Positions 2,729 through 56,659 of a stretch of DNA of 64,000 bases are shown in pieces. The position numbers and the translations under genes were made by a program. The stretch covers positions 147,587 through 211,586 of the forward strand of contig CAYXWL010000001.1 of NCBI GenBank assembly GCA_964468795.1, given 5' to 3'. Below the pieces are notes generated by a model. It searched no databases and was not told the DNA's origin. It saw only the letters and a program-made list of their open reading frames with translations. Source of the DNA: an uncultured Candidatus Saccharibacteria bacterium. Lineage in GTDB: Bacteria > Patescibacteriota > Minisyncoccia > Phycocordibacterales > DATDWN01. The stretch's first letter is position 1, and every line of letters begins with the position of its first letter.

Positions 2729-4105
2729 TTATCTCCTTGATACTCCGTACTGCGTTAGGTAATCAATATCAGCCTGTATGCTATTTTTTAGATTCATCAC
2801 GCTTCTTCCATATGAACAGCTTGAGCCTCCACTACCGTAATATTTACATGCCGCCCTTATTTCTCCGCTATATGTTTGGCTAGATGCACCCAAGTCTCCT
2901 AGATACATTGCTGAAGCAGTAAAGGCATCTTCTGGAGACCATGGGTTTGGCTCGTGATTTAATGCGGATCTTAGCCTGTCTTCAAACAGCATCCAAGTTG
3001 AAGCGATGAACTGAGCAGGGCCCATGGCTCCTCCATATCCTCCAGCTCCTGCAATAGGACAAGAAACCACAGTTTTCATAGGATCAAAACCAAGTCTTGA
3101 AGTAATATCAAGAAACGGCTGTATATCCCTGCTTGGTTTCATTAGGTTAGGCCATGTCTTCCCAGATGAAACATTTACTCCCGCACCCGTTGTAGTGTCG
3201 GTTAAGTAACACTTGCCCACATTTGCTCCCAGATTAGACTCTTGTGTAAGTATCGCCAATACAAAAGCTGGTGCAACTCCTGTCCGATTGGAAGCCGAGT
3301 TTGCATAATTTAATGCCGTGCCAAAATCAATTGCCGCACTTCCTCCTGCAAGCTTGAAGAGTTTTGCTTTTATTTCCGCTGCTTTTTTTTGCCTTTCAGC
3401 CAGGATTTGAGAATATGTCTTTTCCTGAGTCTTGCTGACCTGGACCAAGTACTCCTTTTCTTTTTCGTTAGTTTGAACTTTTTTTTGTTCAGCTTCTGCA
3501 GAAGCTTTTGTATCCGCTTCCTTATCTTTTTGAAGGGCTAGAGCATTTTTTTCTTTTTCCGTGAGTTCCTTGTTTGCTCTAAGTTCGTTGAAAACTACCT
3601 TTAGCGAGGCATTAACAGACTTAAAAGTATCAATATCGCTGAAGAAATCTGAAATACTCTGATTGCCGAGCATTACTTCAGGCAGACTATAAGAGTCCAG
3701 ATCTTTTGTTTTTCTCAAGAGCTGTGACAGCGAATCCTGCCCAGCTTGTATTTTCTCCTCAAGAGTTGCAATGTGAGCATTCTTGTTTGCTATGTCCTTT
3801 TCGAGCTGAGCAATGGCTATGTTTTTTTGTTTTATAAATGCTTTAGCCTGGGCAATCTTTGCATTCAATTGCGCAACTTCGCTCTGTAGAGATTTAGTAT
3901 TTGCTTTTGTACTATCCAAAATCGCCTGCCACTTTGCTATGTCAGCCTCAGTCTGAGCCAGCTCTGCACGCCACTGAGCCTCCTGTTCAGCGTCAGTAAT
4001 GGCAGAAGCAGAGTTTGGAAGCAAAAGCCCAAGTGATAATGCGATAGAAATGGAAAGTGCTATGACGTAAGCCTTTTTCAAGCACAAAAATAACCGTATA
4101 GGCAT
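2729..4105 (-). CDS. secreted coiled-coil protein with C-terminal lytic transglycosylase (SLT)-like domain
   Basis: N-terminal signal/TM, long Ala/Gln/Lys coiled coil, C-terminal ...LTQESNLG...AMGPAQF motif pattern of SLT-type muramidases. Confidence 0.5.
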   Translation of the reverse strand: MPIRLFLCLKKAYVIALSISIALSLGLLLPNSASAITDAEQEAQWRAELAQTEADIAKWQAILDSTKANTKSLQSEVAQLNAKIAQAKAFIKQKNIAIAQLEKDIANKNAHIATLEEKIQAGQDSLSQLLRKTKDLDSYSLPEVMLGNQSISDFFSDIDTFKSVNASLKVVFNELRANKELTEKEKNALALQKDKEADTKASAEAEQKKVQTNEKEKEYLVQVSKTQEKTYSQILAERQKKAAEIKAKLFKLAGGSAAIDFGTALNYANSASNRTGVAPAFVLAILTQESNLGANVGKCYLTDTTTGAGVNVSSGKTWPNLMKPSRDIQPFLDITSRLGFDPMKTVVSCPIAGAGGYGGAMGPAQFIASTWMLFEDRLRSALNHEPNPWSPEDAFTASAMYLGDLGASSQTYSGEIRAACKYYGSGGSSCSYGRSVMNLKNSIQADIDYLTQYGVSRR

Positions 4106-16991: not shown

Positions 16992-17303
16992 TTACCAAGT
17001 TCGGCCTCCTCGGTCGCCTCCATTGCTGAAACCGCCTGTTCGTGGAGCTCGAGGTTCCATAGGTCGTGCTTCATTTACTGTAAGCTTTCGTCCTTCTAGT
17101 TCCTGACCATTCCACATTGAGATTGCAGCATCAGCCTCTGCATCAGAAGACATTTCTACGAAACCGAATCCTTTTGATCGGCCTGTCATCTTGTCCATGA
17201 TGATAGTTGCAGAAACAACTGTTCCTGCCTTAGCGAATGCATCTCTTAGCGCATCCTGTGATGTCGCATAAGCAATTCCTCCAACGTACAACTTCTTTGC
17301 CAT
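16992..17303 (-). CDS. RRM-type RNA-binding protein
   Basis: RNP-2 LYVGGI and RNP-1 KGFGFVEM motifs with a Gly/Arg-rich tail. Confidence 0.8.
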   Translation of the reverse strand: MAKKLYVGGIAYATSQDALRDAFAKAGTVVSATIIMDKMTGRSKGFGFVEMSSDAEADAAISMWNGQELEGRKLTVNEARPMEPRAPRTGGFSNGGDRGGRTW

Positions 17304-17545: not shown

Positions 17546-17752
17546 ATGACGGTTCACGACCTCGACCCCAGCGTTCTCCCCCCACTTCTCTACATCTGGA
17601 CCTCTATGGGCCAGGAAACAATGTGCCACCACGACTACTTCAGAGGCATGCGCACTGATGACAGTGGCAACATGTACCTGGGATCAGCAAAGGTCTACAG
17701 AATCGAGGAGGCTAACGGTTCCTCGAGATGCAGTTTCTGCCCTCGCCAGTAA
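17546..17752 (+). CDS. hypothetical small Cys-containing protein (GC-rich, GGAGG RBS)
   Basis: About 58% GC ORF preceded by AAAGGAGGGTCC-ATG; no homology recognised; followed by a GC-rich hairpin. Confidence 0.3.
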   Translation: MTVHDLDPSVLPPLLYIWTSMGQETMCHHDYFRGMRTDDSGNMYLGSAKVYRIEEANGSSRCSFCPRQ

Positions 17753-17757
17753 CAAAG

Positions 17758-17785
17758 AAGAGCCCCGGCTACAACCGGGGCTCTT
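17758..17785. terminator. GC-rich hairpin (terminator-like)
   Basis: aagagccccgg-ctacaa-ccggggctctt between convergent genes. Confidence 0.4.
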
Positions 17786-17788
17786 AAC

Positions 17789-18472
17789 TTATTTAACTGT
17801 AACTTTTTTCATTACTACAGGACTTACAGGCATATCGTTTGGCCCAGTCTTCACATTTGCAATTGTATCAACTACATCCTGGCCGGAGACGACCTTCCCA
17901 AAAATCGTGTAATTATGCGGAAGCTGGTTATCTTCATGCATTATGAAAAACTGGCTTCCGTTCGTGTTTGGTCCTGCGTTGGCCATTGCAACAACTCCCC
18001 GTTTGTATCCCTGAACATACGAAGGCGTATTTGGATCAAGCTCGTCAGCAAATGTGTAGCCTGGTCCACCTGTTCCATTGCCTTTTGGATCTCCGCCTTG
18101 AATCATAAAACCCTTTATAACCCTGTGAAATGTAAGACCGTTATAGAACCCTTTATTAGCCAAGGTAACAAAATTGCTTACTGTCTTTGGGGCATCATTG
18201 TCGTATGTCTCGATGACTATTTTCCCGTAATTGGTTTCGATGGTGATCATGTGTGATTTTTTATTGTTAGTTGTTGTTACTGTAGAAGTACTGTCTTGCG
18301 TAGTGTTGCCCAAAACATTTTCTGATTTTGTACTAGATGCAGTGCTTGTACTGTATGTATAGCTCGTATCTACCAAGGAGAAATCTTTGTTTGGAGCCTT
18401 GCCAGATAAAAAATAATATAAGCCGACTGAAGCAAGACCGACTAAGACAATGCTGATTATTATATTTTTCAT
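17789..18472 (-). CDS. cyclophilin-type peptidyl-prolyl cis-trans isomerase, membrane-anchored
   Basis: N-terminal TM, Ser/Thr-rich linker, cyclophilin core (HRVIKGFMIQGGDP…GTGG). Confidence 0.85.
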   Translation of the reverse strand: MKNIIISIVLVGLASVGLYYFLSGKAPNKDFSLVDTSYTYSTSTASSTKSENVLGNTTQDSTSTVTTTNNKKSHMITIETNYGKIVIETYDNDAPKTVSNFVTLANKGFYNGLTFHRVIKGFMIQGGDPKGNGTGGPGYTFADELDPNTPSYVQGYKRGVVAMANAGPNTNGSQFFIMHEDNQLPHNYTIFGKVVSGQDVVDTIANVKTGPNDMPVSPVVMKKVTVK

Positions 18473-18619
18473 AATTTAAATATTGTATAGAAACATTATG
18501 AAGCAGGCTTAAAATATTGTCTATTTTCTCAAATAATATTGAATATTGACTTTTTTTTAAAATAGGTTAGTATTGGCCTCTGTATCCCAGATTCCCTGGG
18601 AGGTTCTTTGGGAGGAAAG

Positions 18620-19483
18620 ATGAGACTCAAGTTTGTAATGAAAGTTCTCGCTCTGTTTTTGCTCGTTGTCCTCGTGGACATGAGCCGAGCTGAAGCGACC
18701 GGCATCGACGTGAACGTCTTCACTGCACTGGCACCCAACGCGTACGGCTCGCCGAGCTTTGCGGGCTGGCAGGCGAACGCCGTGACCTCGATGGAAAACG
18801 GCGGGGCCTCTCAGGGCACTGCCGGCACACCGACGTACTTCGAGACTGTCTCGAACATTACGTCGGATCAGGCCATCGTCACGGGCTTCCCGTCATGGAT
18901 GGGATCAGCTGACCCGGGCACGGTCTACGGCCCCGCGTTCGCAAGCGAACTCGGCAACCGCATGACGTTCCCTCTCTGGGTGAACGGCAATGGTAACCAG
19001 TTCGCAATTGGCGACCTCGGATTCGACGCAACCAGCACGGATCCGTTCAACGCACTTGCGTTCTCGTTCGCGCCTGGCGGGTACAACTACTCGTCGGCGT
19101 ACGTCGGACTCGATTACGGTGCTGACGGTGTGAAGGGCACGGCGGATGACAACTGGATCACGAGCGGCTCGAACACCCAACTCGTCAACGAGCTTTACGG
19201 CCGTGGCAGTGGCAATTCGTTTGCTGCCTACTGCCCGCTCTGCAGTCTCTCGAATCAGCAGACCGCAATCAACGATGCTGCGGCATATCCGGGAACGCCG
19301 TTCACGTTCACAGGTATGTACTACCTGTTGTCCGGGAACCAACGTCTCGGACAAGGATCAGCAACCTTCAATATCGGAGTTCCCGGTGGTGAAGGTACGG
19401 CGCCTGTTCCCGAACCGGCATCAATAGTGCTTCTGGGCACTGGCCTCCTCGGCACCTCGTTCCTTCGTCGCAAGAAAAGCTAA
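18620..19483 (+). CDS. PEP-CTERM sorting-signal protein (about 60% GC, compositionally foreign)
   Basis: Signal peptide, Gly/Ala/Thr/Asn-rich body, C-terminal VPEPASIVLLGTGLLGTSFLRRKKS (PEP motif + TM + basic tail); GGGAGGAAAG-ATG RBS; start taken at the second ATG (18620) because of the RBS. Confidence 0.7.
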   Translation: MRLKFVMKVLALFLLVVLVDMSRAEATGIDVNVFTALAPNAYGSPSFAGWQANAVTSMENGGASQGTAGTPTYFETVSNITSDQAIVTGFPSWMGSADPGTVYGPAFASELGNRMTFPLWVNGNGNQFAIGDLGFDATSTDPFNALAFSFAPGGYNYSSAYVGLDYGADGVKGTADDNWITSGSNTQLVNELYGRGSGNSFAAYCPLCSLSNQQTAINDAAAYPGTPFTFTGMYYLLSGNQRLGQGSATFNIGVPGGEGTAPVPEPASIVLLGTGLLGTSFLRRKKS

Positions 19484-53985: not shown

Positions 53986-54525
53986 TTAAACTTTTCTGCA
54001 GATATAAAAGAAAGCCGGTGGCGTGTTAAGAAAAGTAAATCTCATCTTTACGGATCCAAAAAAAGTTCTAAGCAGGCTGAGAGACTCAGGCAGATATTGG
54101 AACTGCAAGAATATTCCTCCAAAACGCAAATTTTCTACAGCTCCGCTTATAATGCCTTCTTTTACTCTGTCATTAAGGTTAGATAATGGTATGCCGGAAA
54201 TAATGTAATCAGAATTTCGATTTACATATTTTGAGACATTTTCAGCGGAATCCTTTATGAGAATCATTCTTTCATCCCTTATTTTGGACAACCTCCTGTA
54301 AAAAACCTCATCAATTTCAAATACATATAAAACAGCATCCTTCCTCATTTTTTTTAGAATCTCTTTTGTAAAAGATCCGCTACCTGCGCCCAATTCCACT
54401 ATTATTTTTGCTGTCTGAAAATCAACTTCGTCGAGCATATCCTCGACTAAAAAAATAGAGCTGGGCGATATAGCACCAACCTGTTTCCACTTTTTTATGA
54501 ATTGAACGATAAAAGAGTCACCCAT
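53986..54525 (-). CDS. class I SAM-dependent methyltransferase
   Basis: Motif I VELGAGSGSFT. Confidence 0.7.
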   Translation of the reverse strand: MGDSFIVQFIKKWKQVGAISPSSIFLVEDMLDEVDFQTAKIIVELGAGSGSFTKEILKKMRKDAVLYVFEIDEVFYRRLSKIRDERMILIKDSAENVSKYVNRNSDYIISGIPLSNLNDRVKEGIISGAVENLRFGGIFLQFQYLPESLSLLRTFFGSVKMRFTFLNTPPAFFYICRKV

Positions 54526-54550
54526 TTACTTGTATAATAACATTTTTTTG

Positions 54551-54925
54551 AATAAGAAAAAAGCCCGACGGACCGACGGCGAACGACATACGCGACGACG
54601 ACTGTTGACGAGCTTTTCCGGGCAAACGCCCGCTAAAACCAGTATAGAATGAACTAGTGAGGCCGTGGGCTGGGAAAACCACGGCGGTCGAAAAGGTGGG
54701 ACTAACGAGCCTGACTTGCTCCGTATCTTACGCCAGTCTTTGCGACTGGCATTGCCTGAAGTTGCCTTTCTGGGAGCGGTTTCCCGCAAATGCTGGTGCA
54801 GTTCCTCTGACCCCTGTCAGGTTGCTTCATGTGGCAATGCGGGCAAACGATCTCGCTGGTGGGACGTGCACTCGCCTTGTGGGGACCTGCCTCATGAATC
54901 TTGACCATACTAGCCTCCGAGTAAA
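54551..54925 (-). ncRNA. unclassified GC-rich structured RNA candidate (RNase P RNA-like?)
   Basis: About 375 nt at about 57% GC with no ORF in any frame; perfect hairpins GCAUUGCC…GGCAAUGC and GCCAGUC-GCAAAGA-GACUGGC; ends in a U-run on the minus strand; weak resemblance to RNase P CR-I (UCAUGAGGCAGG) and CGGAGCAAG; no tRNA-like T-arm. Confidence 0.4.
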
Positions 54926-55006
54926 ATAATACACCGAAAATAAATTTTTAGTCAAGTTTGGGGATTATGGCAATTAATAAAGCTTGCTATCTGATAAAAT
55001 GTCATT

Positions 55007-56659
55007 ATGGATTCAAACATTTTGAACGACTTGCGAAAAACTTTTCAAGGAGAAATAGATTATTCAGAAGATACTTTAAAAACATACTCCAGAGACGCCA
55101 GTCTTTTTGAAGTGAAGCCTTCGGTAGTCATATTCCCTCGCGATGTCGAAGACGTAAAATGCGCAGTGAGATGGGTAAACGAAAACAAAAAACAATTTCC
55201 TCATCTTTCTATAACCGCAAGGTCCGCAGGAACAGACATGAGCGGAGGCCCATTATCGCAGTCTGTAGTAATGGATTTTACAAGGTACATGAATAAAGTT
55301 GTGTCAGTAAATGACGAATATTCAGTTGTACAGCCAGGTTGCTATTACAGAGATTTCGACAAAGAGACACGAAAAAAAAGCAGGATAATGCCAGCATACA
55401 CTGCTTCTAGAGAAATTTGCGCTGTCGGTGGCATGGTTTCCAATAACAGCGGAGGCGAAAAAAGCGTAAAATACGGAAAAGTAGAAAACTATATAAAGAA
55501 GCTGAAGGTTGTTTTTTCCGATGGAAATGAATATGAAGTCATCCCCATGACTTTAGCGGAAATCGAAGAAAAAATTCCCAAGGGAGGCTTTGAGGCAAAC
55601 CTCTATTCAAAAATATACGATCTTGTTAAAGACAACTACAAGGATCTTGCAGATGCCAAGCCTGATGTTTCAAAAAATTCCTCTGGCTATTATCTATGGA
55701 ACGTATATGACAAGGATAAAAAAACTTTTGATCTCTGCCAACTGATAGTTGGCTCCCAAGGAACTCTCGGCATAGTGACGGAGATAACATTCAAGCTGGT
55801 GCCAATTCCAAAATACTCAAATCTTCTTGTAGTTTTTCTTCCCTCCCTAGATAAGGTCAGCGAACTGGTAAACAGGATACTGCCGTACAAGCCCGAAAGC
55901 TTGGAAACGTATGACGACAAGAGCATGATCTTGGCTGTAAGGTTCTTTTTTGATTTCTTTAAACAGCTTGGATTTTTTGGAGCACTTAGACTTGGCCTTC
56001 AGTTCATACCGGAGACGTTCATGATAATGACTGGCGGAGTGCCAAAACTCATCTTGATGGTGGAATTTACTGGAAACACCGAAGAAGAAGTATTTAAAAA
56101 GCTTGTCGAAGTAAAAGATCACATAACCGACTTTCATTTTAAAATGCACATTGCAAAAAATAGCGAGGAAGCTGAAAAATATTGGGACATAAGGCACGAA
56201 AGCTTCAATCTCTTGAGAAAACATGTTCACGGCAAGAGAACTGCGCCATTCATTGACGATATAATTGTTAAGCCTCAATACCTGCCGGAATTTTTACCAC
56301 AGCTAAAAGCCCTGCTTGATGAATACAAGCTCGACTACACAGTTCAAGGGCATTTGGGCAATGGCAATTTTCATATTATTCCGCTTATGGACCTTAACTC
56401 CCCTTTTTCTGCAGATGTAATCCTAGAGCTTGGCGGAAAAGTGTATTCGCTGGTTAAAAAATACAAGGGTTCCAACAGTGCGGAACATAACGATGGAATA
56501 ATCAGGACGCCATATCTTCTCGAGCAGTTCGGTCCGAAGATTAACGGATTATTTGAAGAGACAAAAAAGATTTTTGATCCGCAAAATATCTTTAACCCAG
56601 GCAAGAAAGTTGGCGGAAGCTTTGAAGACATAAAAAAGTGGCTGATGAAAAAGAACTAG
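55007..56659 (+). CDS. FAD-linked oxidase (GlcD/D-lactate dehydrogenase family)
   Basis: PCMH-type FAD-binding domain (…ITARSAGTDMSGG…) plus C-terminal oxidase domain. Confidence 0.8.
   Translation: MDSNILNDLRKTFQGEIDYSEDTLKTYSRDASLFEVKPSVVIFPRDVEDVKCAVRWVNENKKQFPHLSITARSAGTDMSGGPLSQSVVMDFTRYMNKVVSVNDEYSVVQPGCYYRDFDKETRKKSRIMPAYTASREICAVGGMVSNNSGGEKSVKYGKVENYIKKLKVVFSDGNEYEVIPMTLAEIEEKIPKGGFEANLYSKIYDLVKDNYKDLADAKPDVSKNSSGYYLWNVYDKDKKTFDLCQLIVGSQGTLGIVTEITFKLVPIPKYSNLLVVFLPSLDKVSELVNRILPYKPESLETYDDKSMILAVRFFFDFFKQLGFFGALRLGLQFIPETFMIMTGGVPKLILMVEFTGNTEEEVFKKLVEVKDHITDFHFKMHIAKNSEEAEKYWDIRHESFNLLRKHVHGKRTAPFIDDIIVKPQYLPEFLPQLKALLDEYKLDYTVQGHLGNGNFHIIPLMDLNSPFSADVILELGGKVYSLVKKYKGSNSAEHNDGIIRTPYLLEQFGPKINGLFEETKKIFDPQNIFNPGKKVGGSFEDIKKWLMKKN

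Follow-up and report, generated by a model that had tools for sequence, protein, structure and literature searches.

The GC-rich segment at positions 54551–54925 of a 64,000-nt stretch of DNA from an uncultured Candidatus Saccharibacteria bacterium (contig CAYXWL010000001.1 of assembly GCA_964468795.1; the whole stretch, at its full length, is called the window below) is very likely one small, self-contained minus-strand gene that has a promoter, a Shine-Dalgarno (SD) sequence and a coding region of its own, followed by a conserved 3' untranslated region (3'-UTR) and terminator. The predicted transcript of ~365 nt, running from ~54919 to 54555, would encode a 68-residue protein whose core would be a four-cysteine zinc ribbon set between disordered basic tails. 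The terminal hairpin and its U-run would end transcription ahead of a separately promoted methyltransferase gene, and the same hairpin, together with a second one (H1), may shield this short message against 3' exonucleases. Overall the result is largely ordinary, a small gene that was mis-called, with a lineage-specific 3'-UTR motif of modest interest. This motif is absent from Rfam, and the protein represents a zinc-ribbon family, new and narrow, at a position where relatives have a DksA/TraR gene.

The segment shows 53–58% GC when taken 100 nt at a time across 54550–54900, compared to 31–40% in its flanks and ~39% in the window overall, so that its original description as GC-rich stands. Only two places in the window reach at least 52% GC over 375 nt, this segment and a PEP-CTERM gene at 18.5–19.3 kb. 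The segment is flanked by divergently oriented genes for an RrnaAD-like methyltransferase (53986–54525, minus strand) and a FAD-linked oxidase (55007–56659, plus strand). Consensus and terminator scans place promoter-like and terminator-like sites that bracket the segment exactly. Read in this way, it appears to form one minus-strand transcription unit, made up of a promoter-like site, an SD sequence, a 68-amino-acid open reading frame (ORF) and a 3' module. The promoter-like site (TTGACT, an 18-nt spacer and TATTAT) occupies 54926–54955, and the SD sequence GGAGG (54914–54918) lies 5 nt ahead of the ATG. The ORF (MVKIHEAGPHKASARPTSEIVCPHCHMKQPDRGQRNCTSICGKPLPERQLQAMPVAKTGVRYGASQAR) spans 54702–54908 with its TAG stop at 54704–54702; it is identified from the list of ORFs, its homologs, codon bias and a structural model. 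The 3' module extends for ~150 nt, from 54701 to 54553. The U-run of the initial annotation, at the minus-strand 3' end, is retained as the end of a discrete ~365-nt minus-strand transcription unit. Its characterization of the segment as ORF-free is not, given the reading frame at 54908–54702 with its GGAGG.

Comparison with relatives covers 61 loci around oxidase homologs from species-representative genomes, with several more from assemblies (cited below by L numbers). The oxidase homologs carry the names Parcubacteria, Paceibacteria, Minisyncoccia and Zambryskibacteria, which places the source of the window in the candidate phyla radiation. In many of the closest relatives, whose oxidases are 75–81% identical and whose genomes have 33–40% GC, a GC-rich segment of 300–400 nt lies immediately upstream of the oxidase gene. 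Similarity between the window segment and these segments is only weak in nhmmer searches; therefore the position is conserved while the sequence has strongly diverged. Every relative carrying the GC-rich segment has a small SD-led ORF there, preceded by GGAGG or GGAG. The promoter-like site also recurs, with a –35 box TTGAC and a –10 box TATTAT, TAGTAT or TATGAT at the same place in L006, L015, L133, L004 and L005, and likewise in L110, L137, L138 and L139. In all, the same –35/–10 pair and the GGAGG with its ATG are found in more than 10 relatives.

The 68-residue ORF is called by gene finders on three further contigs, all of them 100% identical. Between the window and L015, differences in a 26-codon core number 5/7/18 at codon positions 1/2/3, and the 10 synonymous codon changes make up half of the changed codons. 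Three pairwise comparisons of this core, which is a small sample, give 5/7/18, 11/6/16 and 11/6/14, with 4–10 synonymous codon changes. ORFs of the same ribbon type (L006, L015, L010, L007, L011 and L138) have invariant Cys residues in common with the window ORF, along with a QP dipeptide and a motif resembling CGKPLP, and most of them also have an RWFxGxAPxR-like tail. An exhaustive profile search of 1.84 billion representative proteins returned only six clusters below E = 1e-10, and marginal matches among small proteins share the signature [IV]VCxxCxxxQP...CxxCGKxL. The Cys pattern of the window protein is CxxC...CxxxC, and the 20 residues ahead of the first Cys are predicted to be disordered. 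In an AlphaFold model the core forms a beta-hairpin knuckle at residues 20–50 (predicted local distance difference test scores of ~74–84) with disordered tails; a Foldseek comparison of this model with the PDB gave only generic zinc ribbons, none of them significant (best E = 0.41). From these sequence features it is concluded that 54908–54702 encodes a putative small zinc-ribbon protein of a narrow uncharacterised family, which would be expected to bind zinc. Because the SD and ATG are conserved, substitutions are biased to the third position, the Cys motif is kept and a DksA/TraR gene stands at the same place in the closest relatives, the 5' two-thirds of the segment are considered protein-coding. 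The initial proposal that the ~375 nt are a non-coding RNA with a housekeeping role, for instance RNase P RNA or a long signal recognition particle (SRP) RNA, does not hold.

The alternative of a structured, non-coding RNA that takes up the entire ~365-nt transcript, with the ORF a chance product of GC-rich sequence, is extremely unlikely. It draws on the GC-rich composition within an AT-rich genome, on the presence of a dedicated promoter and terminator, and on the fact that an open frame of 68 codons is not rare at 56% GC, where other frames give ORFs of 87–90 amino acids. GC content is also equally high at all codon positions. However, the whole segment (396 nt) folds no better than dinucleotide shuffles by minimum free energy (z = –0.6 on the minus strand and –1.3 on the plus strand). 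Relatives keep the Cys codons, the SD sequence and the ATG but not the hairpins that lie within the ORF, and this alternative also has to contend with the concentration of substitutions at codon position 3, the recognisable DksA/TraR gene in the slot of the closest relatives and the lack of a match in Rfam. The earlier description of a structured RNA survives only for the 3' ~150 nt, which alone folds better than shuffles, at z = –2.15 in the window and –1.6 to –3.6 in relatives. Of the hairpins and U-run described at the outset, the U-run on the minus strand is present at 54562–54557 after a hairpin, and a perfect GCCGUGG/CCACGGC stem occurs at 54685–54662. Alignment of homologs for covariation, one of the checks that had been suggested, does reveal conserved structure, although this is limited to the ~150-nt 3'-UTR and terminator.

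This outcome has precedent in searches for non-coding RNAs in GC-rich intergenic regions, in which approximately one third of 'unknown' regions proved to be unannotated protein genes and approximately one quarter contained short ORFs, recognised by a ribosome-binding site and a terminator stem (Stav et al. 2019, PMC6429828). The initial annotation followed the same logic, in starting from an extended GC-rich gap against an AT-rich background, and the present gene fits that outcome. It differs from those short ORFs in that its 3'-UTR has conserved covarying structure beyond a plain terminator and in that GC is high at synonymous sites. The case shows that such a gap is insufficient by itself for calling a structured RNA; the small gene, missed on reading the raw sequence, is the standard false positive of this approach.

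Known RNA families were sought with the 4227 covariance models of Rfam release 15, both at gathering score and at E ≤ 10; a scan of this kind had been recommended with the first description. At gathering score the whole window yields three tRNAs only. At E ≤ 10, both strands of 54400–55050 yield nothing inside 54551–54925, and the sole match in that interval is a meaningless 11.8-bit STnc410 outside the segment. No family was matched at the loci of 14 relatives, and the complete L110 unit gave only noise at E > 5. ARAGORN likewise finds three tRNAs in the window and no transfer-messenger RNA (tmRNA). The conserved regions of RNase P RNA around P4 read GAGGAAAGUCC...ACAGAAxxCGGCUUA. RNase P RNA (RF00010/RF00011) was rejected, there being no covariance-model match at gathering score or at E ≤ 10, nor any in the 14 relatives. 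SRP RNA and 6S RNA were rejected for want of a match among the 4227 models, and tmRNA, which combines a tRNA-like acceptor and T-arm domain with a tag reading frame, because neither ARAGORN nor Rfam matched it. As far as covariance models reach, all four are excluded. The initial annotation was thus correct both in setting tmRNA aside, with no tRNA-like feature being detected by ARAGORN, and in finding that the segment could not be assigned to an RNA family. Nor does the loss or absence of the unit from certain close relatives (L008, L013, L017) fit an essential housekeeping RNA.

The slot occupied by the window ORF holds an ORF for a DksA/TraR-type C4 zinc finger in ten relatives (L004, L005, L009, L012, L014, L110, L133, L137, L139 and L142). 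Those of L004 and L012 pass the PF01258 cutoff of 24.9 bits, at 45.5 and 33 bits respectively, and precomputed annotation assigns L133, L137, L139 and L142 to PF01258. The closest relative, L133, shares both the promoter (AAACTTGAC...GGTGTATTAT) and the 3' module with the window, but what they enclose there is a DksA/TraR gene of 132 amino acids. DksA/TraR-type and ribbon-type ORFs are interleaved among relatives of similar distance, in the same slot between promoter and 3' module. Such an arrangement could reflect either repeated replacement or rapid remodelling of one gene. The 3'-UTR motif stays constant while the zinc-finger gene ahead of it changes type.

The window protein itself has no match to PF01258. 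Its sole NCBIfam matches are to DksA/TraR-family models (yteA/TraR), and these are weak, at E = 0.017 and 0.033, with scores of 15 bits where the cutoffs are 60–134. When profiles of the two ORF types are compared by hhalign the Cys pairs are aligned with E = 0.004 and a probability of only 8.6%. Besides sharing slot, promoter and 3' module with genes of this family in relatives, the window gene resembles them in the small size of its product and in its CxxCGxx(I/L)P knuckle. However, its Cys spacing is CxxC-x11-CxxxC rather than the CxxC-x17-CxxC of the family, which the ORFs of relatives keep. In DksA proper the N-terminal half is a coiled coil whose tip reads DxxDxA. L005, L009 and L014 show this tip, whereas the window protein lacks both the tip and the coiled-coil half. 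The window gene may be a strongly remodelled derivative of a DksA/TraR gene. It is highly improbable that it is instead a decaying DksA/TraR pseudogene whose 3' module alone is still functional. The L133 gene, the restriction of NCBIfam matches to this family and the alignment of the Cys pairs are all compatible with decay, but the start, the SD sequence, the four Cys and the QP/CGKPLP motif are kept in six lineages with synonymous changes, and unrelated small proteins elsewhere share the motif, which indicates a functional fold.

The 3' module of the small gene begins directly 3' of the stop codon with a C-rich box, UCCCACC (54695–54701, minus strand), which is predicted to be unpaired. The box is kept as (U/A)(U/C)CCCACCU in L004, L006, L010, L015, L110, L133, L137 and L139. 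It is followed by hairpin H1 (54662–54685), with the stem GCCGUGG/CCACGGC and the loop UUUUCCCAGC, which contains UCCCAGC. H1 forms perfect stems of 5–8 bp in 12 of 12 sequences; the stems come in five or more sequence versions, while the (U/C)CCCAGC loop is invariant. A covariance model of the box and H1 (R1), built from seven relatives with the window excluded, scores the window copy at 34 bits (E = 1.4e-5). The model further recovers copies in L137, L004 and L009 that were not among its seeds, and nothing else convincing in ~600 kb; a match in L051 (E = 0.039) was rejected as an unrelated terminator beside the antisense of a ribosome-binding site. The alignment produced by R1 was used in place of one from MAFFT, in which H1 is out of register. 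On it, 95% of H1 cells are paired and 4 of 7 pairs have changed on both sides, although this alignment is fitted to the model, which favours pairing. The covariation score is reached by none of 500 shuffles, and slid registers are 28–47% paired. Base pairing of the C-rich box with the gene's own SD sequence was rejected, as the two do not covary.

Between H1 and the terminator lies a spacer of 0–70 nt that is not conserved in relatives. In the window it occupies 54619–54657, where a single-sequence fold gives two window-specific hairpins (CUAGUU.../...ACUGGU and CGGGC-GUUU-GCCCG). The terminator (54553–54618), located by the scan and by folding, consists of a closing helix (GAAAAGCUCG/CGGGCUUUUU), a 41-nt A-poor (UCG)n interior and the U-run at 54562–54557. 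RNAalifold on a MAFFT alignment of terminators finds no structure, the 5' strands being misaligned, and folds of the individual sequences were used instead. The closing helix is A-rich on its 5' side and U-rich on its 3' side, and comprises 10 bp in the window, followed by UUUUUU. It pairs in 16 of 16 copies even though the sequences differ, with at least seven versions observed (GCUC/GAGC, GCUCG/CGGGC, GCCCU/AGGGC, GCCCCU/AGGGGC, GCUU/AAGC, ACCCCA/UGGGGU and GGCCA/UGGCC). The interior contains between 16 and 56 nt and is UCG-rich, with 0–11% A; it pairs as 2-bp C-G steps separated by mismatches, and the U-run follows the helix. Both hairpins contain G-U pairs, which on the opposite strand would become A-C mismatches; the structures are therefore assigned to the minus-strand transcript.

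The terminal hairpin resembles intrinsic terminators in its covarying stem next to a U-run, and the 5' A-tract gives it a bidirectional appearance. Ordinary intrinsic terminators have short loops and unconserved sequence, whereas this hairpin surrounds a conserved A-poor (UCG)n stretch of 35–56 nt whose 2-bp C-G steps with mismatches resemble those of triplet-repeat hairpins. It would appear to be an atypical, triplet-repeat variant of an intrinsic terminator. A coding leader peptide was rejected as an explanation of the (UCG)n stretch because ORFs across it differ in frame between species. A leader or riboswitch of the methyltransferase gene was also rejected, since a separate conserved –10 box (TGTGCTATAGT-like) serves that gene, placed after the U-run and ahead of the ATG; moreover, the module is still found behind the small gene in relatives with another gene downstream, namely MscL in L138 and others in L011, L012 and L142. 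A general repeat or a genome-wide type of terminator was rejected as well, the (UCG)n module occurring once per locus and nowhere else in the window. Searches with a 23-base (UCG)n pattern gave one match in a viral collection (L065) and 67 in JGI metagenomes, of which only L110 is real. The L065 match and the other 66 are chance matches in GC-rich coding DNA, and a pattern match in L062 is the antisense of an Asp-rich coding stretch. The 3' module is confined to a narrow Zambryskibacteria-like clade. Within it the module is dispensable: L008 has a deletion allele in which the oxidase and methyltransferase genes are separated by no more than a terminator stub (GGCTCGTCCTTGTCAGGCTTTTTCCTTATAT, ~3880–3950), so that the small gene and the bulk of the module can be lost. 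In L007 a ribbon-type ORF is followed by an ordinary terminator in the same position, and L013, L017 and L018 lack the unit.

Several observations weigh against a reading of the segment as simply a small gene with a terminator. The ORF passes no curated family threshold, and the ribbon-type family is tiny, amounting to the six clusters found among 1.84 billion representatives. The covariation of H1 carries the bias of its model-fitted alignment. GC content in the ORF is 0.58/0.52/0.58 at codon positions 1/2/3, and the value at third positions (GC3) is more than 4 standard deviations above that of the other 59 ORFs (0.363 ± 0.052). Coding alone does not explain this high GC, and RNA-level constraint or foreign origin are both possible. 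Finally, an interior of ~41–55 nt is atypical for an intrinsic terminator and is more conserved than a plain terminator needs, so that it probably does something beyond termination. Taken with the invariant C-rich motifs, which likewise are conserved more than terminating or stabilising roles would require, this suggests an additional function of the module.

The high GC is shared by the ORFs of relatives, which have GC3 values of 0.44–0.74 in both types. Recent transfer does not explain it because orthologous copies of the unit occur in relatives whose divergence has reached saturation. In the window, canonical GGAGG at real gene starts is rare and coincides with the GC-richest genes, the starts at 18620, 37071 (a NUDIX protein), 54908 and 17546. 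In a crude census with mechanically chosen starts, 54 of 61 ORFs have no SD motif. The methyltransferase gene has an extended –10 box (TGT-TATTAT, 54542–54534, minus strand) only 8 nt ahead of its ATG, which suggests, on the spacing of these elements, that mRNAs here may be leaderless. High GC at synonymous sites thus forms a persistent compositional pattern in the 68-residue gene and in two other SD-led genes of the window.

A foreign origin for the entire unit is improbable; in this reading it would be a moron-like cassette, with a promoter, small ORF and terminator of its own and deviant composition, that was acquired horizontally and serves no conserved role for its host. Both GC and GC3 are far from host values, the canonical SD sequence is unlike most host genes, two different types of ORF occupy the same slot, and the unit is missing or deleted in some close relatives (the L008 stub, L013, L017 and L018), all of which would be in keeping with such a cassette. 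However, the promoter, the 3' module and the position are common to more than 12 relatives in which the flanking oxidase is only 75–81% identical, and divergence of the ORFs exceeds that of host genes; for these reasons the unit is regarded as a long-resident, vertically inherited one. Its composition has also not drifted towards that of the host, which argues for selection, and the viral collection yields no real copy and the JGI metagenomes only a single one.

Staphylococcal RsaE and RNAIII carry unpaired UCCC motifs that pair with the SD regions of target mRNAs (PMC2790875). The 3' module of the small gene is similar to RsaE/RoxS and to the RNAIII hairpins of Staphylococcus/Bacillus in having unpaired UCCC in a linker and in a loop upstream of a terminator, where it forms the most conserved part. 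It is unlike them in lying in the 3'-UTR of a coding gene, in having no sequence or model similarity to them, in its host, a member of the candidate phyla radiation, and in that no targets were found for it among the 61 ribosome-binding regions of the window. By this analogy, the gene could be real and its 3' module additionally act in trans as a 3'-UTR-derived small RNA, with the UCCCA motifs pairing with G-rich SD regions of targets, but this is unlikely. The two invariant C-rich motifs, predicted to be unpaired in a linker and a hairpin loop and followed by a terminator, do reproduce the architecture of Rsa RNAs (PMC2790875), and these motifs are more conserved than the coding region. In a single anecdotal case, the leader of the PEP-CTERM gene has CUGGGAGG, which overlaps its SD sequence and is complementary to the H1 loop. 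However, no exact 7-nt complementary site occurs in the 61 ribosome-binding regions of the 64 kb, a test of low power, and GGGA is not enriched in them (3 observed compared to 3.7 expected). The failure to match Rfam also bears on a small RNA, as any RsaE model would be included there. Most genes here seem to lack an SD sequence, so that few targets would exist.

More broadly, the 3' module might be a new class of regulatory RNA element in candidate phyla radiation bacteria, either as a small RNA or as a platform for protein binding, although the chances of this are low. Should it be a small RNA, its anti-SD-like C-rich motifs would control the few SD-led, GC-rich genes of an otherwise largely leaderless genome. 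Should it be a platform, the zinc-finger protein whose gene lies immediately upstream would bind the triplet-repeat hairpin, which would amount to autoregulation. Under a regulatory role of this kind the slot between conserved promoter and 3' module would accept interchangeable zinc-finger genes. Post-transcriptional control in candidate phyla radiation bacteria is almost unexplored, and the module would provide a defined example if it is regulatory.

The window contains a second unit of similar appearance at 17546–17790 (plus strand). Its ORF, also of 68 amino acids (17546–17752), is preceded by GGAGG, has a GC content of 0.55 with GC3 of 0.70, and encodes several Cys and His residues; it has no Pfam match. 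The unit ends in a perfect terminator hairpin, GAGCCCCGG-CUACAA-CCGGGGCUC. The other GC-rich patch, at 18608–19483 (plus strand), has ~60% GC and GC3 of 0.69. It encodes a secreted protein of 287–291 amino acids with a PEP-CTERM signal (PF07589, 29.1 bits), and as a gene for such a protein it was rejected as a related element. This gene adjoins those for tRNA-Gly and tRNA-Ser and was probably acquired horizontally. In its leader, UCCCAG...CUGGGAGG could form a hairpin that masks the SD sequence, using the same hexamer as the H1 loop. A glycine-rich protein of 103 amino acids with an RRM-type RNA-binding domain (PF00076, 71.9 bits) is encoded at 16992–17303 on the minus strand, and would be a candidate for binding such structured or repeat RNAs as the organism makes.

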